Source: Deltaproteobacteria bacterium | GTDB lineage: Bacteria > Desulfobacterota > BSN033 > WVXP01 | DNA length: 64,000 nucleotides | Reading direction: 5' to 3' | NCBI GenBank assembly: GCA_019308905.1 | Contig: JAFDHF010000002.1 | Location: 75,854 to 139,853 of the forward strand | In this document: positions 2,845 through 63,056 of the stretch, in pieces | Position numbering within the stretch: position 1 is the first letter of the stretch | How the letters are laid out: each line of letters starts with the position of its first letter | Notes under the pieces: generated by a model | The model's input: only the letters and a program-made list of their open reading frames with translations | What the model was told of the DNA's origin: nothing | Databases searched by the model: none | Position numbers and translations under genes: made by a program

Positions 2845-3789
2845 ATGCTGAATTACATCATCCGCCGCCTCTTTGTAGCAGTCCCGGTTCTGCTGCTCAT
2901 CAGCATCATCGTCTTCCTGCTCGTCCACCTCCTCCCCGGTGACCCGGCCACGGTGATGCTGGGAGAGGAGAGCACCCCTGAGATGATCCAGGCCTTGAGG
3001 GCCGAACTAGGCCTCGACCAACCTCTCCACAAGCAGTACCTCCAATGGCTGACCCGATGTCTCTCCGGAGACTTCGGCCGTTCCATTCAGACCAGACAGC
3101 CCGTGAGCGAGGCATTGGTCCAGCGGCTCCCTGTAACGATCGAGCTGACCCTGCTCGGCTTCTGCGTCTCGATCATGATAGCTCTGCCCATTGCCGTTGC
3201 CAGCGCAGTGCGCCCCAATTCCTGGATAGATGTTATGGGCAGCGCGTTTGCCACAATCGGTATCTCAATGCCTTCCTTCTGGCTGGGAATCTTGCTGATC
3301 TATGCCTTTGCCGTCAGCCTCCATCTACTACCGGCATCGGGCTATGTTCCCCTCAGGGAGAGCGTGGTCCAGAATCTCCTGCACATGGTTCTGCCGGCTT
3401 TCACCCTCGGTATGTGGCTCAGTGCGTCGGCAATGCGCATGATCAGGGCCGGAATGATCGACGTGCTCGAACGCCCTTACATCCGCACGGCTAGAGCCAA
3501 GGGCCTTTCCGAGAGAAGGGTTCTATGGCATCACGCCCTCAAGAATGCGTTTATCCCTGTTGTCACTATTCTCGGCCTCCAGTTGGGGCGCCTGATGGGT
3601 GGCGCCGTGGTGACAGAAACGATCTTTGCCCAGCCGGGCGTCGGCCAATTGGCGGTCAAATCGATCTTCATGCGCGATTTCCCCCCGGTACAGGCGATCG
3701 TTCTGGTTATGGCGATCTCTATGCTTTTGAGTAGCCTGGTCGTCGATATCCTTTACTCGTTCTTGGATCCAAGGATAAGGCTCAGATAG
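2845..3789 (+). CDS. ABC transporter permease (DppB/OppB-like)
   Basis: Multi-pass membrane protein with the binding-protein-dependent transport EAA-loop region. TAG stop. Confidence 0.85.
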   Translation: MLNYIIRRLFVAVPVLLLISIIVFLLVHLLPGDPATVMLGEESTPEMIQALRAELGLDQPLHKQYLQWLTRCLSGDFGRSIQTRQPVSEALVQRLPVTIELTLLGFCVSIMIALPIAVASAVRPNSWIDVMGSAFATIGISMPSFWLGILLIYAFAVSLHLLPASGYVPLRESVVQNLLHMVLPAFTLGMWLSASAMRMIRAGMIDVLERPYIRTARAKGLSERRVLWHHALKNAFIPVVTILGLQLGRLMGGAVVTETIFAQPGVGQLAVKSIFMRDFPPVQAIVLVMAISMLLSSLVVDILYSFLDPRIRLR

Positions 3790-11306: not shown

Positions 11307-11319
11307 ATGGGTGTGACAA

Positions 11320-11480
11320 GGTAAGCGGATGCTTTGGGTGTAGGGAAGACGGTTGGAAGCCGTCGCGGACCCGCCGCTGTGAGTGGGGACGAAAGCCACA
11401 CAGAGTGCCACTGTTCCGCGTGAGCGGAGCGGGAAGGCGTGGTGAGTAGGACGATCCACGAGCCAGAAAACCTGCCCAAG
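11320..11480 (+). ncRNA. cobalamin (adenosylcobalamin) riboswitch aptamer
   Basis: Contains GGGAAG...GGTTGGAAGCCG...CCCGCCGCTGTGAG...GCCACTG and the B12 box AGCCAGAAAACCTGCC (11461-11476). It lies upstream of a TonB-dependent receptor gene. Confidence 0.75.
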
Positions 11481-11533
11481 GCGTTTCTCCATGAAGATTC
11501 CTCGAGGAGTGGGAAAATGGAGTGGGCCAACAG

Positions 11534-11726: not shown

Positions 11727-13838
11727 ATGAAGCCATCGCACAACCCCACACGTCCGCCGAAATCGACGGCCCGACCCGCCCACCCTTCACGGCACGGCAG
11801 GAGTCCGAAATCCCTTGCAAGGGGCCTCCTGGCACTCGCCTGTGCAGGGAGCCTCGCGCTGGCCCTGGATTCCACACCCTCTCCGGCCCAGGAGCCCGAT
11901 GAGAAGTCGGAGGTCCCCGTACTTCGCGAGGTTGTCGTAACGGCGACGAGACGGCAGGAAGAGATCCGGAAGGTCCCGGGCAACGTCACCGTCATCACCG
12001 AGAAGGACATAGAGAACTGGGAGACGATGACCGTGGCCGATCTGCTCCGGTCACAGGAAGGGATCGTGGTGAGAGATCTCCTGGGAAACGGAAAGGCCGC
12101 CCAGGTGGACCTCCGTGGATTCGGGGAGACAGCGCCCTTCAACACCCTCGTCCTGGTTGACGGGAGACGGGTCAACGAGATCGATCTGAGCGGTGTCGAT
12201 TGGACCCAGATCCCTCTGGATCAGGTGGAGCGCTTGGAGATCGTCCGGGGCACCGGAAGCGTCCTGTACGGGGACAACGCGGTTGGTGGAGTGATCAATA
12301 TCATCACCAAATCCCCTGAGGGAAAACCTTCGGCCATGATCGGCGGCGTCGGCGGAAGTTACGGGCGCAACGGGGCCAAAGCCTCTGTCGGCGGCGGGAC
12401 CGAGAAAATCGCGGCCTCTTTGACCGGCAGCTATGACGCAACAAGCGGATACAGGGACAACGAAGACTTCCGGAGAGGGGATGTCGGAGGAAAGGTCATC
12501 TACGATGTGACCGACGCTATCAGCCTCAACCTTACCGGATCCTATCACCGTGACGAATACGGTCTGCCGGGCCCACTCACGGAAGCAGAAGTCGAGGTGG
12601 ACAGGCGGTCCACCAGCAGGCCCCTCGACAATGCCAGAACCAGGGACGGGTACCTGAAGCTCGGCACGGATTGGGATCTGGGAGAGTACGGGCGAATCGT
12701 GGCGGACCTCTCGTACAGGGACCGGAACAACAGGGACGAGTTCGTCAGCTATTCGTCGGCTTCGGATCGGGATACCGCAACCTGGGCCTTCACCCCTCGA
12801 TACATCTGGGACGGAGAGATCACGGACCGCCCAAACACCCTCACCGCAGGAATCGATATCTATGCATCCGACCTGGACGCGGATTTTTTCTTTGGAACGC
12901 CCCTTGCTCCCTCGGGCTTTTCCAGGATCGAAAAGGATTCCTACGGGTTTTATGCGAGCGATGAATTTTCCCTGTCCGACAACCTCATCCTTTCCCTGGG
13001 TGCCCGGCACGAAGAGGTCAAGTACGATCTCGAACAGGAGGATTTCCTCTTCGGCCTCGTCCCCCTGGATGAAACAGTGAAAGACTCTGCAAATGCATAC
13101 ACCGCAGGACTCACCCTCCTCTACGGCAAAGGATCCTCCGCCTTTGTCCGAGTCAACCAGAGTTTTCGATTTCCCCTCACGGATGAACTCGTCGTCTTTG
13201 ATTTCGTGAATACGGGAAGCATTCGGATAAATTCCGACATCAAGCCTCAGATCGGCCATCACCTCGATATAGGGGTGAGACACTTCTTCACCCCCGACGT
13301 GCAAGCCAACGTCACCCTCTTCCACGCGGAGATCGAGGACGAGATCTTTTTCAATCCGCTGACCTACACCAACGAGAACTATCCGGAAACCCTGCACCAG
13401 GGCATCGAGGTCGGAGCGAGGGCGCAACTGCTCAAGAAGATTACGGTTTTCGGAAACTATACCTACGAGAAGGCGACCTTCGAGAAGGGTTCCTTCAGCG
13501 GCAACGACATACCCGCCGTACCGAGACACAAGGCAAACCTCGGACTCAAGATCAGTGATTTCGCCCCTGGACTTACCTTCGCTGCCGACTACAACTACGT
13601 GGGCTCGAGCTACCTCATCAGCGACGTCGCCAACGATTCGTCCAAGCTCGATGCTTATTTCACGGTCAATGCCAGGCTCACCTACAACTGGAAATGGCTC
13701 AGGGCCTATGCCGGCGTGAACAACGCGACAGACGAAAAGTACTCCGAATACGGCGTGGTCTCAGGTTTCTCTCAGACCTCTTACTTCTATCCCGCCCCTG
13801 GAAGGAACTGGGTGGCGGGCATCGAGGCCAGCTTTTAA
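11727..13838 (+). CDS. btuB: TonB-dependent outer-membrane receptor, BtuB-like (probable corrinoid transporter)
   Basis: Signal peptide, TonB box (EVVVTAT), plug domain, 22-strand barrel ending in a C-terminal aromatic residue (…GIEASF), and a cobalamin riboswitch upstream. Confidence 0.85.
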   Translation: MKPSHNPTRPPKSTARPAHPSRHGRSPKSLARGLLALACAGSLALALDSTPSPAQEPDEKSEVPVLREVVVTATRRQEEIRKVPGNVTVITEKDIENWETMTVADLLRSQEGIVVRDLLGNGKAAQVDLRGFGETAPFNTLVLVDGRRVNEIDLSGVDWTQIPLDQVERLEIVRGTGSVLYGDNAVGGVINIITKSPEGKPSAMIGGVGGSYGRNGAKASVGGGTEKIAASLTGSYDATSGYRDNEDFRRGDVGGKVIYDVTDAISLNLTGSYHRDEYGLPGPLTEAEVEVDRRSTSRPLDNARTRDGYLKLGTDWDLGEYGRIVADLSYRDRNNRDEFVSYSSASDRDTATWAFTPRYIWDGEITDRPNTLTAGIDIYASDLDADFFFGTPLAPSGFSRIEKDSYGFYASDEFSLSDNLILSLGARHEEVKYDLEQEDFLFGLVPLDETVKDSANAYTAGLTLLYGKGSSAFVRVNQSFRFPLTDELVVFDFVNTGSIRINSDIKPQIGHHLDIGVRHFFTPDVQANVTLFHAEIEDEIFFNPLTYTNENYPETLHQGIEVGARAQLLKKITVFGNYTYEKATFEKGSFSGNDIPAVPRHKANLGLKISDFAPGLTFAADYNYVGSSYLISDVANDSSKLDAYFTVNARLTYNWKWLRAYAGVNNATDEKYSEYGVVSGFSQTSYFYPAPGRNWVAGIEASF

Positions 13839-18439: not shown

Positions 18440-18622
18440 CCCGATCGACATCCCTCTGCAGCAGGTCTTCTGGCTCTCGGATCTTCCTTTGGGCTGCGGC
18501 CTTCCCGTCAGGGTGAACCCTGGCAGTGACGCGAGACGGGCGATCGCCCGGCAGCCTTCAGTCCCCGATCACAGCGGCGGGACCGCCGCGGATTTCCACC
18601 GCGTTCCGGGATGCTGCAAGGG
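18440..18622 (-). ncRNA. cobalamin riboswitch aptamer (second copy, minus strand) leading the cobT-cobD-cbiZ-cobU-cobS operon
   Basis: The minus-strand RNA carries GGTGGAAATCCGCGG...CCCGCCGCTGTGA...GTCACTGCC and the B12 box AGCCAGAAGACCTGC. The core resembles riboswitch 1 (shared CCCGCCGCTGTGA...GGGGAC). Confidence 0.7.
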
Positions 18623-18630
18623 AAATTCAT

Positions 18631-18658
18631 CTTATGATGCTTTCCCGCTCCTTGTCAA
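18631..18658 (-). promoter_or_regulatory. candidate sigma70 promoter for the riboswitch-cob operon (TTGACA, 16-17 nt spacer, CATAAG/ATAAGA)
   Basis: Hexamers read on the minus strand. They overlap the 3' end of the convergent aldehyde dehydrogenase gene. Confidence 0.35.
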
Positions 18659-53416: not shown

Positions 53417-54718
53417 ATGGAGAGTGGCAAGAAAAGCCGGGAAATGCTGAACAGAGCCCAACAGGTCATCCCCTTGGGGGTTAACTCGAACTTCAGGTAC
53501 TGGGGTGACGACAAGACCCTGATCATCAAAAGGGGCCAGGGAGCCTATATCTGGGACCAGGATGACAGGAGGTACATCGACTACCGCCTCGGTTTCGGCC
53601 CCACCATCCTAGGGCATGGGTATCCCTCGGTCGTCGAGCGGGTAAAGGAGGCCCTGGAGATGGGGAACGTCTTTGCCATGACGAACGAATACGAGATCTC
53701 AGCCGCGGAGAAGATCAAGAAGCTCACAGGAGTAGACCTGGTGAGATACGCGAACTCGGGGACAGAGGCCACCATGCACGCCATCCGGATCGCCCGGGCG
53801 TATACGGGCAGGGACAAGGTGCTCAAATTCGAGGGATGCTACCACGGCTTCCACGACTACACGCTCTGGAACTGCCAACCTCCCATTCCCGGCGCCGGCT
53901 ATAGAAGATCACCGGTGCTCGTGGCACAGGGCTCGGGAATCCCACAGGTCATCGCCCAATTGGTCTATTCCATTCCCTTCAACGACGAGGAACTCCTTGA
54001 GAAAAAGGTGAGAGAGAGCTGGGGAGATATCGCCTGCATCATCATCGAGCCTCTCATGGGAAACACGGCTTCCATCATGCCCAAGAAAGGCTTTCTCGAA
54101 CTCGTCCGAAGCCTCTGCGATCAGTACGGAATCGTCATGATCATGGACGAAGTCAAGACGGGTTTCAGGATCGCAAAAGGCGGGGCCCAGGAATACTTCA
54201 ACATCAAGGCCGACCTCGTGACCTATGCCAAGGCCCTGGGAAACGGCTTCCCCATAGCGGCCATCGGCGGCAAGAAGGAGATCATGGGCGAGATCGGCTG
54301 GCAGAAGATTCCCCACGGCGGAACCTATTGTGCCAATGCCGTGGCCGTCGCTGCCGCCGATGCGACCCTCGACGCCATCGCAGGAGGGGCTCTTGAAAAG
54401 GTCGATGCCCACGGCAGGATCCTGGCCGAGGGGCTCAAGAACGTCTTGAAAGAGAGAGGCGTTCCCGGAATAGTCCAAGGCCCTCCATCCATGCCGGGGG
54501 TGGTCTTCACGGAAAAGGAGGAGGTCCGCGAGTATCGGGACTGGGCCGATTCCGACCACGACACATACGAGGAGGTCATCCTGAAGCTCTTCGAGAAGGG
54601 CGTGATGCCGGACAAGGACTCCAGAGAGCCATGGTTCATCTCGGCCTCCCACAGCGACAGCGATGCGGACCAGGCAATCGGGGCCTTTGACGAAGCCGTG
54701 AAGGAAGTGTTCGGCTGA
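53417..54718 (+). CDS. class III aminotransferase, glutamate-1-semialdehyde-aminomutase-like
   Basis: PLP class III features (GTEATMHAIRIARAYTG and DEVKTGFR with the catalytic Lys). Confidence 0.85.
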   Translation: MESGKKSREMLNRAQQVIPLGVNSNFRYWGDDKTLIIKRGQGAYIWDQDDRRYIDYRLGFGPTILGHGYPSVVERVKEALEMGNVFAMTNEYEISAAEKIKKLTGVDLVRYANSGTEATMHAIRIARAYTGRDKVLKFEGCYHGFHDYTLWNCQPPIPGAGYRRSPVLVAQGSGIPQVIAQLVYSIPFNDEELLEKKVRESWGDIACIIIEPLMGNTASIMPKKGFLELVRSLCDQYGIVMIMDEVKTGFRIAKGGAQEYFNIKADLVTYAKALGNGFPIAAIGGKKEIMGEIGWQKIPHGGTYCANAVAVAAADATLDAIAGGALEKVDAHGRILAEGLKNVLKERGVPGIVQGPPSMPGVVFTEKEEVREYRDWADSDHDTYEEVILKLFEKGVMPDKDSREPWFISASHSDSDADQAIGAFDEAVKEVFG

Positions 54719-54742
54719 AATCCGGAGAAAGGAGGTGAACTC

Positions 54743-56197
54743 ATGCGGAAAGGTCCAGTAGCAGGCACCGAGATGTCGACAGGCTGGGGCCTGAAGACCC
54801 TCACACAGGACGGCCTCGAGAAGATCCATGCGGCCACGCTCGATGTCATGCAGACCACGGGGATCTCGGTGGGGAGCGATGAGGCCCTCGACATCCTGGA
54901 CAAAGGCGGGTGCTGGGTCAACAGGAAAACCCAGGTGGTGAGATTCCCCCCCCACATAGTGAAGGAAGCCCTTTCCACCTGTCCTGGCCGCATCCTGCTT
55001 GCCGGCCGTGATCCGGCCGACGATTTCATGATGGGCGGGCGGGAAGTCGGGTTTACGACCTTTGGAACAGGCGTCCTTGTGGTAGATCCCGAGACAGGAG
55101 AGGTCAGGCCTTCGACAAAACACGACATGGGGATGACAGCCCTTCTGGCAGACGCCATGGAGAACGTGGACGTACTCACAACTCCTGTAGCAGCCAGGGA
55201 CAAGCCCGATTCATCCTACGATCTCCACATGGCCGAGGCGAGTTTTGTCAACTGCTCCAAGCACCTTCACAGCGATGCCGAGGACGGCCAGAGGGCGATA
55301 AAGATCATAGAAATGGCCTCGGCCATCGTGGGAGGCGAGGAACAACTCAAGGCGAGACCGATCGTCTCCTTGGCCATCTGCCCCACGAGCCCTTTACAGC
55401 TCATCGAGCCCATGGCGGAGGTGATCATCGAGGCTGCCAGACACTGGATTCCCATCGACGTCCTCAGCATGGCCATGGCCGGCGCTTCAAGCCCCATCTC
55501 GCTCTCGGGGGCCATGGTCACCCACAACGCAGAGGTCCTTTCGGGTATCGTCCTGGCTCAACTGACCAGCCCCGGCGCCCCGGTGATCTATGGCAGTTCC
55601 ACCACGACCTTTGATATGAAAAGGGGAACCGCGGTCGTGGGGGCGCCGGAACTCGGGATGATAAGCGCCCTGGTGGCGGAGCTTGCCAACTACTACAACC
55701 TTCCGAGCTATGTCGCCGGCGGGTAGGCTGATTCGAAGATATCCGATGCCCAGGCAGGCCACGAGAAGACCGTTACGGCTCTGCTGCCGGCCCTGGCAGG
55801 GGCCAATCTCATCTACGGTCTGGGCATGCTCGAGATGGGCATGACCTTCAGCTTCGGCCAACTGGTCATCGACGATGAGATCGCGGCGATGGTCAAGAGA
55901 GTGGTTGCAGGGGTTTCTGTCGAGGACGAGCCGATGGGTGTGGATCTGATCAAGCAGGTGGGCATAGGGGGTAACTTCCTGACCCAGAGGCACAGCCTCA
56001 GGCACGTGGCCACGGAGCAATCTCAGGTGAGGATCTTCGATCGTCGCATGCGAGGAGCATGGGAGAAGAGAGGATCCAAGGATCTGCTTCAAGTGGCAAA
56101 CGAGAGAGCCCTGGAGTTGCTGAAAACCCACAAGCCCCTTCCGCTACCCGACGGAGTCGAGGAACAGCTAGAAAGGATCGTGGCCAGTGCGGAATAA
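54743..56197 (+). CDS. mttB: trimethylamine:corrinoid methyltransferase (MttB) homolog with an in-frame amber codon (TAG at 55724-55726) at the conserved pyrrolysine position. The predicted full product is 484 aa with Pyl near residue 328.
   Basis: The ORFs 54743..55726 and 55826..56197 are in the same frame and separated by a single TAG with no other stop. Both halves are MttB-family sequence. The TAG position corresponds to Pyl334 of methanogen MttB. Confidence 0.75.
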
Positions 56198-56254
56198 ATC
56201 GCATGAAGGAATCTGTGGTCCGAAGAGAAAGGATTCTCCATCGAGGAGGGAGAA

Positions 56255-57664
56255 ATGACGACCAATATCTTGACCAGGATGGGCGACGGGGAGAGGGTCT
56301 CCATGTTGCCCGACCAAGTCAAAGAGGACCTCTGGGCAGGGACCAGGGATGCGGCCCAGAGGGGTGGAATTCCGGAACTTTCCCAGGAGGAGGTGGAGCA
56401 GCTCTTCGATATTTTTGCCGACACCAACCGCATCGTCAGTGTCCGTCCAGGCCACGAGGTTGTCATGACGGACGATGGCGGTGCCATGTTGCTTGTCTGC
56501 GAGCAGAGCGATGGAGGGGTGGGGATTCCCATGAGCCGGCTCCAGTCGATTCTAACCTATGAGCGGGGTTGCGCGGCCGACACTGCATCGCTCGGACACC
56601 ACGATTACAGCTACAAGGCCGTGAAGCCCCTGGTCTTCTATGAGATGCAGGAGTATTACGCCGCATCTCAGGTAACCACTATCCCCCTCTTTTACGGTTC
56701 GCAGCCCAATCTGGGCCTGTATTACCAGCCTGACGGCCCCTTTCCCAATCCAGCGGATCTTCTCCCCCAGGGCAAGATCAGGGAAGCCAGAGAGACCCAG
56801 GAAAAGGCGGCCGACCGCCTCAGGAAGGACATGGTCTATATCGGCACCAAACTCTACGAGGTCGGCTGCGAGGGCATCAACTTCGATACCGCGGCCTCAG
56901 CCGGGGACGCGGATTTTTGGGCGACCCTGGAGGCCGTGGCCGAACTCAAGGGTGCGGCCCCACACATGGCCGTGGAAGTGGGGATGTCCAGTGAGTTCGT
57001 CCTGGGCATGCACGGCGAGATCAAGTTCGACGGCAAGCGGCTCGCAGGTATGTATCCCCACGAACAGGTAAAGGTCGCGGAGGCTGCAGGGGCGGATATC
57101 TTCGGTCCAGCCGTGAACGTAAACACCACGAAATCGATGCCGTGGAACCTCGCCAGGGCTGTGACCTTTGTCAAGGAGACCGTTCGAGCTGCCAGAATTC
57201 CCGTCCACGTCAACGCAGGCATGGGGGTGGGAGGAGTCCCCATGTTTGAGATCCCTCCTATTGACTGTGTGACCAGGGCATCCAAGGCATTGGTCGAAAT
57301 CGGGAAGGCAGACGGGTTGTAGGTGGGCACGGGGGATCCTTTCGGCATGCCTATGGCCCACATAATGGCTGCGGGTATGGGTGGCATGAGGACCGCCGGA
57401 GATCTGGTGGCCTGGATGCAGATGACCCGGAAGATGAAAATAGGCGAAGCCAAACATTATGTGGCAGAGAGATTGGGCCTGAGACCGGTGGACCTGTCAG
57501 ACGAGGAGGTCATGCGCCGGGTTAGGGAGGAGCTCGGCATAGGCGTGATCACGGCGGTGGCAGGGGATGCTAAAGGAATAGCGGCCAAACTCAAGATCGC
57601 CGAACTGCTCGATATTCGGATCAATTCGGTCGATCTGTTCAAATCCAGGATCGGCTACCCGTGA
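56255..57664 (+). CDS. mtbB: dimethylamine:corrinoid methyltransferase (MtbB, Dimeth_PyL family) homolog with an in-frame amber codon (TAG at 57320-57322) at the conserved pyrrolysine position. The predicted product is 469 aa with Pyl at residue 356.
   Basis: ORFs 56255..57322 and 57323..57664 are contiguous and in the same frame. Strong MtbB-like motifs lie on both sides of the TAG ([29 protein letters not shown]...TAG...[29 protein letters not shown]). Confidence 0.75.
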
Positions 57665-57746
57665 ATTGAGTCCAGAGCGGCGAGATCACTTTTCGTGATT
57701 CAAGGTCACCCGGTGAGAAGAGCTGTTCCAGGGAGGGATTCGCAAC

Positions 57747-58427
57747 ATGAACGAAGAACTCATGGCTGAGGCCAGAAAGTCCATTACGGAAGGCGATAAG
57801 AACAAGGCCGGAGAAATTGCAAGGAAAGGTCTTTCACAAGGACTCGACCCCATGGCGCTTCTTGAGGATGGCTTTATTCCGGCGATAACAGAGGTGGGAA
57901 GACTCTTTGAGCAGGAGGAGATCTTCCTGCCAGAGCTGATGTTGGCCGCCGAGGCGATGAAGACTGCCGCCGCGATCTGTAACGGGGCCCTGCCCAAGGA
58001 AAGGGTGAAGCAGATAGGTCGAGTGGTCATAGGAACAGTCGAGGGCGATATCCACGACATCGGGAAGAGCATCGTTGAATCCTTTCTCTCTGCCCACGGC
58101 TTCGAGGTCCACGATCTTGGCAGGGAGGTACCCACCGATGAGTTCATCAAGAGGGCCGTTGAGCTGAAAGCCGACGTCATCGCCACCAGCGCCATGCTGA
58201 CAACCACCATGGGGGCACAGCAGGACCTGGAGGATGAGCTGAGGAAGAGGTTTCTCCGCGACAGGTTCAAGACGATCATCGGAGGAGCACCTGTGGACCA
58301 GCAGTGGGCGGATACAATCGGTGCTGACGCCTATGCAGAGGATGCCTCTGAGGCCGTGCAGAAGATCAGGGAACTCCTCGGATCCCAGGCCTCCGCGGCC
58401 CCTGAGAAAGGTCGAAAGAATCGGTAA
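57747..58427 (+). CDS. cobalamin-binding corrinoid protein (MtbC/MttC/MtgC-like)
   Basis: N-terminal helical cap plus a B12-binding Rossmann domain with the DxHxxG motif (GDIHDIGK). Confidence 0.85.
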   Translation: MNEELMAEARKSITEGDKNKAGEIARKGLSQGLDPMALLEDGFIPAITEVGRLFEQEEIFLPELMLAAEAMKTAAAICNGALPKERVKQIGRVVIGTVEGDIHDIGKSIVESFLSAHGFEVHDLGREVPTDEFIKRAVELKADVIATSAMLTTTMGAQQDLEDELRKRFLRDRFKTIIGGAPVDQQWADTIGADAYAEDASEAVQKIRELLGSQASAAPEKGRKNR

Positions 58428-58468
58428 AAGGGGTTCAGGCGGCCAAGACCGGAGGGGGGAACTAATTC

Positions 58469-59953
58469 ATGGACACATGGCGAGAGAGGGCCAGAAGCGG
58501 CATAACCCCCATTGTGGTCAGACCTGGGATGAGAATTGAGCTTCTCAGTGGCAGAGAGCTCGAAAGGGTTCACCAGGCTACGCTGACGGTTCTCGGGCAA
58601 AGTGGCGTGAGATTTCCCTATGAAAGGGGTCTCAAGATCTTTGCGGAAGCAGGCGCAAAGGTCGATTTCGAAAGTAAGATCGTCCGGATCCCGGCTGATC
58701 TGCTGATGAGAAGCCTCGCCAACGCGCCGAGAACCATCGCCATGGCTTCCAGAGGCCCCGAGGATCTCGATCTCTATCTGGATGGAACCAGGAGTTACTG
58801 CGGGACCGAGGGGACTGGGCTGGCCGTAGTCGATCTGGAGACTCGCAAGCGAAGGCCTTCTACAAAAAGAGACGTGGCCATGATGGCCCAGATCTGCGAC
58901 TATCTTCCTTCCATCGGCTTTTACTGGCCCATGGTGAGTGCCCGTGACGTCCCTCCGGGGGTGATCTCACTCCACGAACTCGAGGCATCCTTTACCCACA
59001 CGGAAAAACACGTCCATATCATCAGCTGCACAGAGGCGAAGACCGCAGGTTATGCCGTTGAGATGGCCAGAGCCGTTGCAGGCGACAGCGAATCGCTGAG
59101 AAAACGCCCTCCCCTTTCCCTGCTGGTCTGTGCAACTTCTCCACTGACACAGGACAAAGGCTCACTGGAGGCGGCCCTGAGATTCGCCGAGGCGGGACTC
59201 CCTGTATGCTTCTGCACCATGCCGGTCGTGGGCTCCACCGGCCCGGGTTCCATGGCAGGGACCATGATCATGGGAAATGCGGAGATCCTGAGCGCCCTCT
59301 GCCTCATTCAACTGGTCTATCCCGGAGCGCCGGTCTGTTACGCTTTTTTCCACGACATGATAAACCCCTTCACCGGTCAATGCTGGGCCTCGGCGCCCCA
59401 GAAGGCGGGATTTCATACGGCGGTCGTACAACTCGGGCACTACTACAATCTCCCGGTAATGAGCGGCTATGGAGGCACCGACGCTCGCAAGCCGGAAAGT
59501 TGGCAGACAGGGAAAGACAACGCCATCGATGCCCTGTTCTCCTTTCTCACAGGCCCTGACCTTATGCCTTCTCTGGGGCTTCTCGAGGCCTACACTCTTC
59601 TGTACCCGGAGAAGATCCTCTTGGACACCGAGATTTTCAACTCCGTCAAGACCATGACAGAGGGAGTCAGAATCGATGAGGGGGCACTTGCCCTGGATGA
59701 GATCATGGCTGTTGGTCCTGGTGGCCACTTCCTCGACAGGGATTATACCTGCGAGAATCTCCGCAAGCTCTGGCAGCCCGGTGTCGCCAACCAGTGGTCT
59801 CCCCAAGCTGGAGGCTTTCTCGATCCACAGGAGGCTGCAATAGAAAAGATCAGGTGGATTCTTGCCAACCATCACCCGAACCCCCTTGAGGAGAAGGTGG
59901 AGAAAGAGCTCGCGAGGATCATCAGGACAGCCGAGAGAGAACTGCTGGGCTAG
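58469..59953 (+). CDS. MttB-superfamily methyltransferase without an amber codon (non-pyrrolysine paralog, quaternary-amine/glycine-betaine-type MtgB-like)
   Basis: Full-length uninterrupted 494-aa MttB-family protein. It has G at the position aligned to Pyl of the upstream paralog. TAG stop. Confidence 0.85.
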   Translation: MDTWRERARSGITPIVVRPGMRIELLSGRELERVHQATLTVLGQSGVRFPYERGLKIFAEAGAKVDFESKIVRIPADLLMRSLANAPRTIAMASRGPEDLDLYLDGTRSYCGTEGTGLAVVDLETRKRRPSTKRDVAMMAQICDYLPSIGFYWPMVSARDVPPGVISLHELEASFTHTEKHVHIISCTEAKTAGYAVEMARAVAGDSESLRKRPPLSLLVCATSPLTQDKGSLEAALRFAEAGLPVCFCTMPVVGSTGPGSMAGTMIMGNAEILSALCLIQLVYPGAPVCYAFFHDMINPFTGQCWASAPQKAGFHTAVVQLGHYYNLPVMSGYGGTDARKPESWQTGKDNAIDALFSFLTGPDLMPSLGLLEAYTLLYPEKILLDTEIFNSVKTMTEGVRIDEGALALDEIMAVGPGGHFLDRDYTCENLRKLWQPGVANQWSPQAGGFLDPQEAAIEKIRWILANHHPNPLEEKVEKELARIIRTAERELLG

Positions 59954-60047
59954 TCTCGATGGGCGAAGAAGAACCTCCAAAGGGAAGACAAGACATGAAA
60001 AAAGAGGCAGGATTTTCCGGCCTGAGACCCGAGCAAGGAGAATCCAC

Positions 60048-60956
60048 GTGGAGGCGATCGAGATCAGCCGGGAGGCGGAAGCGGGTCTGAAGAAAAGACC
60101 CAAAAGCCTTTTTCCCTGGGAAATACCCTTCTACATGGGGCCGATCACGGTCCTGGTAGTGGTCTTTGTCTTTGCTCCCCTGGTGATCATCCTGTTTTTC
60201 AGCTTCCTGAAAGCAGGCCCTCTGGGCGAGATAGTGTACCGGTTCAACCTCGATAATTTCCGGGCCATCCTTGGAGGCGGCTATGGAAAGGTCTTTCTTT
60301 ACTCCTTTTATCTTGCTGCACAGACAAATCTGGCATGCATCGTCTTGGCCTATCCGCTGGCCTACTTTATCGCGAGGTACGGAGGCAGATGGAAGATCTT
60401 TCTCATCTTCATGGTCATCATCCCCTCCTGGGTGGCCTATCTTATCAGACTTTACGCCTTCAAGACCATAGTGGGAAAACAGGGCCTCATCAACAGCCTC
60501 CTCATCCACCTCGGGCTCATCTCAGCCCCCATCGAGATGCTCTACACACCCTTTATCGTCATGGTCGGCCTGGTTTACACGTGGTTGCCCTTTATGGTTC
60601 TCCCTCTCCATGCCTCCCTGGAAGGGCTCGATCCGGCCCTACTCGAGGCTGCCACGGATCTGGGGGCCACACCCATCCGCCGCTTCTTCAGGGTCACCCT
60701 CCCCCTCACCCGGGGGGGGCTCATCGCAGGATCGATACTCGTGTTCATCCCCACTCTGGGAGACTGGCTCGTTCCCTATCTGCTGGGTGGGTCGAAGGTT
60801 ATGATGGTTGGAAACCTGGTCGCCGAAAAGTTCATCATGCTGGGCAATATCCCGGAGGGCTCCAGCCTAGCCGTCATGCTGGCAGCCACGCTGGTCCTGA
60901 TTCTATACCTTTCCATCAAATGGGGGGGGAAGGAAGCGATGGAGAGAATTCTGTGA
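60048..60956 (+). CDS. ABC transporter permease (PotB/PotH-like)
   Basis: BPD_transp_1 membrane protein. The GTG start at 60048 has an AAGGAG ribosome-binding site. Confidence 0.75.
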   Translation: MEAIEISREAEAGLKKRPKSLFPWEIPFYMGPITVLVVVFVFAPLVIILFFSFLKAGPLGEIVYRFNLDNFRAILGGGYGKVFLYSFYLAAQTNLACIVLAYPLAYFIARYGGRWKIFLIFMVIIPSWVAYLIRLYAFKTIVGKQGLINSLLIHLGLISAPIEMLYTPFIVMVGLVYTWLPFMVLPLHASLEGLDPALLEAATDLGATPIRRFFRVTLPLTRGGLIAGSILVFIPTLGDWLVPYLLGGSKVMMVGNLVAEKFIMLGNIPEGSSLAVMLAATLVLILYLSIKWGGKEAMERIL

Positions 60957-61922: not shown

Positions 61923-63056
61923 ATGAAGATGAAGAATCTCGGCAAGGTTGGCATGGCTTTTTTCTTCTCGATTGTTTTCACCATGGGTGTGCTGTCCGGC
62001 GCCCTGGCCGAAGGCAAATACAAGGATTACCCGGTACCAAAGGCCTGCATGGATCAGGTCCGCAAGGAGGGGAGCAGGCTTTTCATCTACGACTGGGCCG
62101 AGTGGTGGCCCGAGGATCTGTTTGCCAATTTCACAAAGGAATTTGGCGTAAAGATCACGAGGGATCATTTTGCGGACTCAGAGGAGATGGTGACAAAGAT
62201 CAAGCTCAATCCCAAGGCCCCCTACGACCTTGTCACAGGCATAGGGCCTGAACATGTGATGCGGCTGAAGGGGTTGGGCCTGGTCCGGCAGCTCAACCAT
62301 GACTGGCTTCCCAATGTGGATGCCTATCTGGAAGACCAATACAAGAAGCTACCCTATGATCCGGGCAACCATTTTCAGATCGGCGATTCTGTCTACTTTA
62401 CGACCTACACGTACAACTCGAAATACGTGGACCCCAACGACCCCTTGATCCCCTCGTGGAAGCTGCTTTTCGAGGGCAAGAAGTACGCAGGCAAGATTAC
62501 CATGATCGACAACATGTTCGAGACTGTCGGCACGGCCTTGAAGTATCTCGGATACTCGTACAACTCTGTGAACGAGAAAGAGCTGGAAGAGGCAAGAAAG
62601 GTTCTGCTCAAGCAGAAACCAATGGTGATGGCTTACGATTCCTGGCCGAGGCGACTCCTGGTGGAAGAGGAGGCCTGGATCTCGCACCTGTGGGTCGGAG
62701 ACAGTTGGCTCCTCCATCAGGATATGCCCACTATACTGGGGGCCCTGCCGACAGAGGGGACTTTTATGGCCCTGAACACGGACTTTCTTCCCATAGGCGG
62801 TAAACATCCGGCGGCGGCACACCTGTTTCTCAATTATCTTTTCCGGACGGATGTGAACGCAAAGCTGATCCAATGGATCGGCTATCCTCCTGTCCACAAA
62901 CACGTCATGGAGCTGATGTCCGATGAGATGAAGAAATGGCCCGGCTTCATCATCAAACCGGAATATGCCAAGAAGTGTGACATCTTCGATATCAAGGCTG
63001 TTACCGGAAGGGGAAGAGAGCTGAGAGCTAAGATATGGGAGGAGCTGAAAAAATAG
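61923..63056 (+). CDS. ABC transporter substrate-binding protein, PotD/PotF (spermidine/putrescine) family
   Basis: Signal peptide, SBP_bac_1/8-like fold, and an AGGAAGGAGG ribosome-binding site. Confidence 0.8.
   Translation: MKMKNLGKVGMAFFFSIVFTMGVLSGALAEGKYKDYPVPKACMDQVRKEGSRLFIYDWAEWWPEDLFANFTKEFGVKITRDHFADSEEMVTKIKLNPKAPYDLVTGIGPEHVMRLKGLGLVRQLNHDWLPNVDAYLEDQYKKLPYDPGNHFQIGDSVYFTTYTYNSKYVDPNDPLIPSWKLLFEGKKYAGKITMIDNMFETVGTALKYLGYSYNSVNEKELEEARKVLLKQKPMVMAYDSWPRRLLVEEEAWISHLWVGDSWLLHQDMPTILGALPTEGTFMALNTDFLPIGGKHPAAAHLFLNYLFRTDVNAKLIQWIGYPPVHKHVMELMSDEMKKWPGFIIKPEYAKKCDIFDIKAVTGRGRELRAKIWEELKK

Follow-up and report, generated by a model that had tools for sequence, protein, structure and literature searches.

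Is the amber codon that interrupts a bacterial methyltransferase gene read as pyrrolysine (Pyl), and does an RNA hairpin next to that codon help in the reading? The question is raised by mtbB, a predicted dimethylamine methyltransferase gene on the forward strand of a 64,000-nucleotide (nt) stretch of a deltaproteobacterial genome (assembly GCA_019308905.1, contig JAFDHF010000002.1, positions 75,854 to 139,853); we call this whole stretch the window, and all coordinates refer to it. An earlier examination of the same letters, made without database searches (the sequence-only reading), had proposed that the in-frame UAG of this gene specifies pyrrolysine and that a stem-loop directly behind it resembles a pyrrolysine insertion sequence (PYLIS). 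Our analysis makes it very probable that mtbB is functional and that the standard Pyl system decodes its UAG as pyrrolysine, with no adjacent hairpin assisting. The RNA feature that is genuinely conserved is found in another part of the same Rfam family than the hairpin first proposed.

Results

The UAG of mtbB and the sequence that follows it

56255..57664 (+), mtbB, predicted dimethylamine:corrinoid methyltransferase, 469 codons with one in-frame UAG (TIGR02368, PF09505)
57320..57322 (+), in-frame UAG, codon 356, at the pyrrolysine position (single-column gap in PF09505; TAG in 81 of 81 loci, the window included)

The reading frame has the geometry that had been described: the open reading frame 56255..57322 is closed by the TAG, a GTG at 57323 continues the frame, and the TGA at 57662-57664 ends the gene after 469 codons, of which the TAG is codon 356. 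A Shine-Dalgarno sequence, GGAGG, lies 5 nt upstream of the ATG. With an X placed at the TAG, the protein scored 582.3 bits against the NCBIfam equivalog TIGR02368 (cut-off 369.1) over positions 1-465 of 466, and the Pfam family Dimeth_Pyl (PF09505) matched on both sides of the TAG, covering profile positions 4-353 before it (510.6 bits) and 355-462 after it (163.1 bits), so that the TAG falls on the one missing column (profile position 354 of 463). These matches bear out the identification as MtbB, and the alignment with the UAG of archaeal mtbB, which requires no gap, confirms that the amber codon corresponds to Pyl356. The closest species-representative genome (L002) is an uncultured Thermodesulfobacteriota metagenome-assembled genome (MAG), with protein identity of at most 83%; the identical sequence is also present in Joint Genome Institute (JGI) sample 3300033141 and in NCBI MAG GCA_019309355.1. 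A sequence search of the PDB yielded no solved structure of a relative.

For comparison we used 80 mtbB loci from species-representative genomes, the window itself being L001 (81 in total). Most of the 80 belong to Desulfobacterales, and the others include Gemmatimonadota, Aminicenantes, Planctomycetota, Dehalococcoidia, Myxococcota, and Peptococcaceae, giving at least 8 phylum-level labels; one locus, L073, comes from the cultured relative Desulfocicer vacuolatum DSM 3385. Codon 356 is TAG in every one of the 80, and in 77 of them the frame runs on into the conserved C-terminal domain, the exceptions being two loci cut by a contig edge (L002 and L042) and one with a frameshift (L034). Where dS was unsaturated, the ratio of nonsynonymous to synonymous substitution (dN/dS) between the window and its closest relatives was 0.08-0.14 after the TAG, and the single value computable before it was 0.10. 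The segment after the TAG is thus under purifying selection, which, as far as sequence can indicate, implies read-through in this lineage. A chance nonsense mutation, already doubted in the sequence-only reading, and a split gene are excluded by the retention of TAG in all related loci together with the low dN/dS downstream of it.

The frameshift in L034 (4683-4802) falls ∼20 codons past the UAG (…MGGYEPPEIW, then stop) and reflects either a pseudogene or an assembly error. In two genomes, mtbB paralogs number 4-5 per genome, all of them with the UAG and with the distal hairpin described below: Tobar13.5m-G30 (L033, L036, L041, L048, and L077) and MAG075 (L006, L023, L044, and L049).

We considered whether the TAG might be a true stop, in which case mtbB would be a pseudogene or would be split in two, with its C-terminal part of 113 residues restarting at GTG 57323. 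Such a reading draws on the position of the GTG directly behind the TAG, on the splitting of mtbB by gene callers, and on the common use of TAG as a stop in the window. GTG 57323 is, however, not a conserved start, since codon 357 is ATT, ATA, ATC, CTG, or CTT in most relatives, and it is not preceded by a Shine-Dalgarno sequence; the family model crosses the junction without a gap, dN/dS is equal on either side, and TAG is universal at this codon among the related loci. We therefore regard a true stop as next to impossible. The behavior of gene callers is a property of the whole family: a database search returned 2,822 homologs, and the best 120 are, with few exceptions, exactly 355 amino acids long, indicating that gene callers halt at the same point throughout.

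Genes of the Pyl machinery were found near mtbB in some of the relatives. In 17 of the 80 related loci ARAGORN detected a tRNA-Pyl(CUA) no more than 10 kb from mtbB, and NCBIfam models identified pylSc, pylB, and pylC beside tRNA-Pyl in L030 and pylSc in L027.

The hairpin adjacent to the UAG

57323..57361 (+), proximal hairpin, a window-specific inverted repeat, neither conserved nor predicted in context (folding and alignment)
57320..57419 (+), match to Rfam RF02509, PYLIS_2 (pyrrolysine insertion sequence, mtbB), 82.6 bits vs gathering threshold 36, E = 1.3e-19, model positions 1-100 of 100

The sequence-only reading had placed a hairpin directly 3' of the UAG, and the inverted repeat on which it rests (gtgggc...gcccac, with an inner stem) does exist and folds in isolation at -18.8 kcal/mol. 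This stability does not clearly exceed chance (z = -2.0; 5 of 200 shuffled sequences fold equally well), and the hairpin is lost once flanking sequence is present: the minimum-energy fold differs in an 81-nt or 121-nt context, and in 300 nt of native context its 13 pairs form with a mean probability of 0.0008. Comparison with the equivalent region of relatives, which had been suggested as a check, went against the hairpin. Among 79 distinct sequences the window alone can form all 13 pairs, the outer stem is intact in just 3, and the 42-nt segment has a mean folding z-score of -0.75. On an alignment of 76 bacterial sequences, 69.6% of cells in the hairpin are paired, and its covariation (0.104) is close to the shuffled mean (0.096; 31 of 500 shuffles reach 0.104) and equal to that of one slid control. 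We found no conserved local structure nearer than +74, counted from the UAG, and hence no stem-loop within ∼10-20 nt of it of the kind seen in the bacterial selenocysteine insertion sequence (SECIS); folding revealed no equivalent of the proximal hairpin at the UAG of the neighboring mttB.

As a conserved element the proximal hairpin is thus ruled out by its retention in a single sequence, its lack of covariation, and its negligible probability in context. It is a lineage-specific coincidence on top of a partial self-complementarity that comes from a conserved peptide; the proximal pairing in general, this hairpin included, is a by-product of the peptide V/I-G-x-G-D-P-x-G-M...A-H.

The hairpin overlaps, one register off, the proximal stem of PYLIS_2, a family whose structure was drawn from an alignment of 16 archaeal and 2 bacterial sequences (Have et al. 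2013; PMC3639795, Additional file 2) and has two stems, one proximal (7-38) and one distal (73-92); the authors themselves caution that their consensus structures are approximations (PMC3639795). The window matches this model from end to end. Three non-canonical pairs are flagged in the match, every one of them in the proximal stem (3 of its 11 pairs), whereas the pairs of the distal stem are all canonical, and much of the score reflects conservation of the coding sequence. Within the 76 bacterial sequences the published proximal stem is paired in 73.6% of cells, a value not above that of shuffled alignments (338 of 500 reach it), with covariation of 0.139, below the shuffled mean of 0.149; in the native context of the window its pair probability is ∼0. 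Without covariation and with 3 of 11 window pairs non-canonical, we rejected this stem as a structure maintained in bacteria.

That the hairpin at 57323-57361 acts as a PYLIS- or SECIS-like signal promoting Pyl insertion is therefore very improbable. Its stability in isolation and its overlap with the published stem are the points in its favor, and they are outweighed by its disappearance in context, its restriction to the window, covariation no better than that of shuffled or slid controls, the equally unsupported proximal stem of PYLIS_2, the lack of a counterpart at the mttB UAG, and published experiments in which PYLIS was dispensable (PMC2933860).

A conserved hairpin farther downstream

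57390..57412 (+), distal hairpin GGACCGCCGG-AGAU-CUGGUGGCC; core stem 57393-57399 / 57404-57410, loop 57400-57403

Only the distal stem-loop of PYLIS_2, at +74 to +91, is a selected RNA structure. It begins 70 nt 3' of the UAG (68 nt to the base of the extended stem), covers codons 379-386, and folds alone at -12.8 kcal/mol. In a 300-nt context, its stem has a pair probability of 0.997 in the window and 0.89 on average, exceeding 0.5 in 96% of sequences. When consensus structures were computed de novo with RNAalifold over 120 nt, 240 nt, 420 nt, and the whole gene, this was the only convincing local stem, wider folds contributing just stems of 2-3 base pairs upstream of the UAG; it coincides with the distal stem of the Rfam model, at 73-92, which was thereby recovered independently. 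Across the alignment 91.5% of its cells are paired, as compared to ≤56% in slid controls, and its covariation of 0.178 (shuffled 0.100) was reached by none of 500 shuffles.

Pair 75-90 joins two third-codon positions (Thr and Val) and occurs as CG in 29 sequences, UG in 15, UA in 10, AU in 6, GC in 5, and GU in 1, with 10 non-pairs. As a null we took all 5,008 comparably variable pairs of third positions lying 6-60 nt apart in the same alignment, which retains the phylogeny; pair 75-90 ranked first of the 5,008, with an excess pairing of +0.28 (z = 5.1), and it underwent at least 33 state changes on a neighbor-joining tree, A-U, G-C, and U-A each having several origins. Pair 78-87 occurs as CG in 61 sequences, UG in 12, and AU in 2. 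Synonymous-codon entropy at codons 379-387 is the minimum of the gene (0.45-0.48 vs a mean of 0.84), and the loop Gly codon is GGA in 76 of 76 bacterial sequences, making loop base A81 invariant. In archaeal mtbB the stem is retained, with A75-U90 and A78-U87 in place of the C-G that predominates in bacteria, and the first loop base is variable there.

Pairs 79-86 and 76-89 are invariably G.U. On the other strand each would become C.A, which places the constraint on the sense RNA, and a DNA palindrome or an antisense RNA was rejected as the basis of the element. Extensions of the lower stem (65-71/94-100, 60-62/107-109, and 47-53/127-133) were predicted thermodynamically and rejected because their observed pairing equals that expected, as were long-range pairs between codons ∼142-148 and the UAG region from the whole-gene RNAalifold computation (observed 0.968, expected 0.969). 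An internal start consisting of the Shine-Dalgarno-like GGAG and the GUG at +88 was also rejected, as its codons are not conserved as starts. Elsewhere in mtbB, codons 89-99 (56519-56551) show a second, weaker dip in synonymous entropy (0.64 vs the mean of 0.84) without a clear motif or partner.

A possible counterpart in mttB

54743..56197 (+), mttB, predicted trimethylamine methyltransferase with an in-frame UAG at 55724-55726, codon 328 (TIGR02369, 723 bits vs cut-off 525)
55724-55823 (+), match to Rfam RF02510, PYLIS_3, at the mttB UAG (81.7 bits vs gathering threshold 38)

The sequence-only reading was right that two Pyl-type genes stand side by side, the adjoining gene being a mttB of Pyl type. 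Applying the same approach to 46 mttB sequences, we found that synonymous variation across the gene is lowest at codons 345-356, 17-28 codons past that gene's own UAG (0.50 vs 0.81). In the relatives, a hairpin, AUUGGC-AGGU-GCCAAU, occupies +69 to +84 (55792-55807 in the register of the window) with a mean pair probability of 0.73-0.80 and some covariation. Pair 69-84 is AU in 33 sequences, GC in 6, GU in 1, and mismatched in 6, and its observed pairing is 0.87 vs 0.76 expected; in the published mttB set, pair 72-81 is A-U in Thermincola, U-A in several Methanosarcina, and G-C in most bacteria. The window's own mttB forms 4 of the 6 pairs of this stem and has a window-specific stem instead, GGCCCU/GGGGCC at 55789-55804. 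The +69 to +84 stem appears neither in the structures of Have et al. nor in PYLIS_3. A lower stem at 53-60/93-100, predicted thermodynamically, was rejected for lack of support, its observed pairing being equal to expectation.

Neighboring genes and the rest of the window

57747..58427 (+), predicted cognate corrinoid (B12-binding) protein (TIGR02370, 226 bits vs 215; Pfam B12-binding and B12-binding_2)
58469..59953 (+), predicted MttB-superfamily member of non-Pyl type, without in-frame UAG, its own stop being TAG (PF06253 full length; TIGR02369 379 bits, below the cut-off of 525)

The corrinoid protein scores below the cut-off of the MtbC-specific equivalog NF041607 (202 bits vs 350). Genes for an ATP-binding cassette (ABC) transporter come after the non-Pyl MttB-superfamily gene. 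Judged from its predicted products, the locus is a methylamine-utilization cluster that combines two Pyl genes, mttB and mtbB, with genes for a corrinoid protein, a non-Pyl MttB homolog, and an ABC transporter. The non-Pyl enzyme (58469-59953, +) shares an operon with the two Pyl enzymes and a transporter of polyamine type; its substrate may be a quaternary amine, glycine betaine for example, and it may feed the same corrinoid protein.

Two cobalamin riboswitches (RF00174) are present in the window, at 11319-11493 (+; 99.3 bits) and 18443-18633 (-; 67.2 bits), one preceding a TonB-dependent receptor gene (11727-13838) and the other a minus-strand cobT-cobD-cbiZ operon for cobamide salvage; they are in keeping with a lifestyle of corrinoid-dependent methyl transfer. 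A class-III aminotransferase gene at 53417-54718 (+) matches the NCBIfam equivalog GntE, the guanitoxin-biosynthesis transaminase (550.5 bits vs cut-off 525), a name unexpected for Desulfobacterota. Its neighbors are an agmatine-deiminase-like gene, an amino-acid permease gene, and, just outside the window, an arginase gene, and it is probably part of the metabolism of an arginine-derived compound. Elsewhere the window carries ABC transporters, a TonB-dependent receptor, cobamide salvage genes, aldehyde:ferredoxin oxidoreductases, and hydantoinases, a content consistent with a diderm anaerobe; the host is an uncultured Desulfobacterota/Thermodesulfobacteriota bacterium.

Discussion

Pyrrolysine is an active-site residue of methylamine methyltransferases. 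In the mechanism that we favor, which follows the published model, codon 356 of mtbB would be translated as pyrrolysine by a Pyl-tRNA(CUA) that is brought to the ribosome by the ordinary elongation factor and competes there with the release factor, an adjacent recoding hairpin being unnecessary. For this organism, the identity of the inserted residue as Pyl is what we infer from sequence.

Pyl-containing MtbB has been established in Deltaproteobacteria since 2007, when it was described in the Olavius algarvensis delta-1 symbiont (Zhang and Gladyshev; PMC1976440), and it is also known from marine Deltaproteobacteria (Kivenson et al. 2021; PMC8318568). The gene studied here shares with these and with MtbB of archaeal Methanosarcina the family (TIGR02368/PF09505), the UAG column, and a place in a cluster with a corrinoid protein and mttB(Pyl); relatives can carry several paralogs per genome, and nothing material sets the gene apart, except that in the window no pyl operon is adjacent within 64 kb. 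By these comparisons mtbB is a genuine, ordinary bacterial dimethylamine methyltransferase gene of a type already known and catalogued.

Several observations nonetheless weigh against decoding of the UAG as we propose it. The 64-kb window contains no pylT, pylS, pylB, pylC, or pylD and no tRNA gene at all. TAG is a frequent ordinary stop, ending 9 of the 41 annotated genes of the window (TGA 23, TAA 9), and the depletion of TAG that had been expected is therefore not seen within the window; read-through at these stops would need to be tolerated or regulated. The one selected hairpin, finally, lies ∼55 nt ahead of the front edge of a ribosome positioned at the UAG; this is not where a classical stimulator is placed. 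On the second of these points, TAG is not avoided as a stop in other Pyl-using bacteria either (PMC1976440). Some TAG-ended genes of the window (2845-3789, 61923-63056, and 58469-59953) have a second in-frame stop 6-15 codons on, which would limit the damage from read-through by Pyl-tRNA.

Reviews hold that PYLIS is non-essential, that mtbB has nothing resembling the mtmB structure, and that Pyl insertion proceeds through competition between Pyl-tRNA and release factor (PMC2933860, PMC8211752). The PYLIS of mtmB (RF01982) is, like PYLIS_2, a structure predicted in the first ∼100 nt past a Pyl UAG. Its consensus stems (10-17/82-89 and 40-46/54-60) are unlike those of mtbB, its model has no match at E ≤ 10 within 54500-60200 of the window, and experimentally it was found to be non-essential and to show limited covariance (PMC2933860). 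The bacterial SECIS likewise is a stem-loop within coding sequence 3' of a recoded stop, but its place is directly behind the UGA, decoding requires it, and a dedicated factor binds it (PMC1976440, PMC8318568). In mtbB, by contrast, the adjacent hairpin is unconserved, 70 nt separate the conserved one from the UAG, and there is no known dedicated factor.

What the distal hairpin does can only be inferred. Its position, ∼55 nt beyond the ribosome edge, and its lack of a U-tract make it neither a classical recoding stimulator nor a terminator. It may have been selected for a reason outside recoding, such as pausing for co-translational folding, mRNA stability, or shielding of a ribosome-poor stretch after a slow codon, and to this we give about an even chance: the covariation, the entropy minimum, and the rank of pair 75-90 are accounted for just as well, the location is unsuited to direct contact with the decoding ribosome, and the absence of a U-tract disposes of a terminator. 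Taken alone, a role of this kind leaves unexplained why mttB has a similar element at a similar offset.

Alternatively, the distal hairpin may be a true cis-element of Pyl decoding that aids translation of the UAG or lowers termination at a distance, by binding a factor or by influencing ribosome traffic. It carries the strongest synonymous constraint in mtbB together with robust covariation, it is shared by Archaea and Bacteria at a constant distance from the UAG and with A81 invariant in the bacterial sequences, and the unrelated mttB has its own synonymous minimum and hairpin past its UAG. The distance to the ribosome speaks against such a role, no Pyl-specific elongation factor is known (PMC2933860), and reporters without any such element still translate UAG as Pyl (PMC2933860, PMC8211752). 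The constant spacing, moreover, follows from a conserved protein segment without insertions or deletions. We consider a decoding role for the mtbB hairpin unlikely. Equally doubtful is the broader proposal that hairpins ∼70-90 nt past Pyl UAGs, with strong covariation in mtbB (+74 to +91) and moderate support in mttB (+69 to +84), are cis-elements tied to bacterial Pyl decoding, as the geometry of the mtmB PYLIS differs and two genes are too few for a general rule. If true, it would run counter to the current view, in which neither mtbB nor mttB has a functional PYLIS.

The analysis divides the PYLIS_2 region into a part that merely echoes the peptide sequence and a part under real selection at the RNA level. 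For annotation, the gene is a reminder that gene callers break mtbB into pieces of 355 and 105 amino acids. Which cis signal, if any, separates a Pyl UAG from a stop UAG in bacteria has been a standing question since 2007, when Zhang and Gladyshev inspected bacterial Pyl genes manually and saw no structure shared among them (PMC1976440). The distal hairpin and its possible counterpart in mttB provide a concrete candidate for such a signal, one that can be tested by compensatory mutations, and, to judge from its mtbB locus, this organism is probably a Pyl decoder that uses methylamines.

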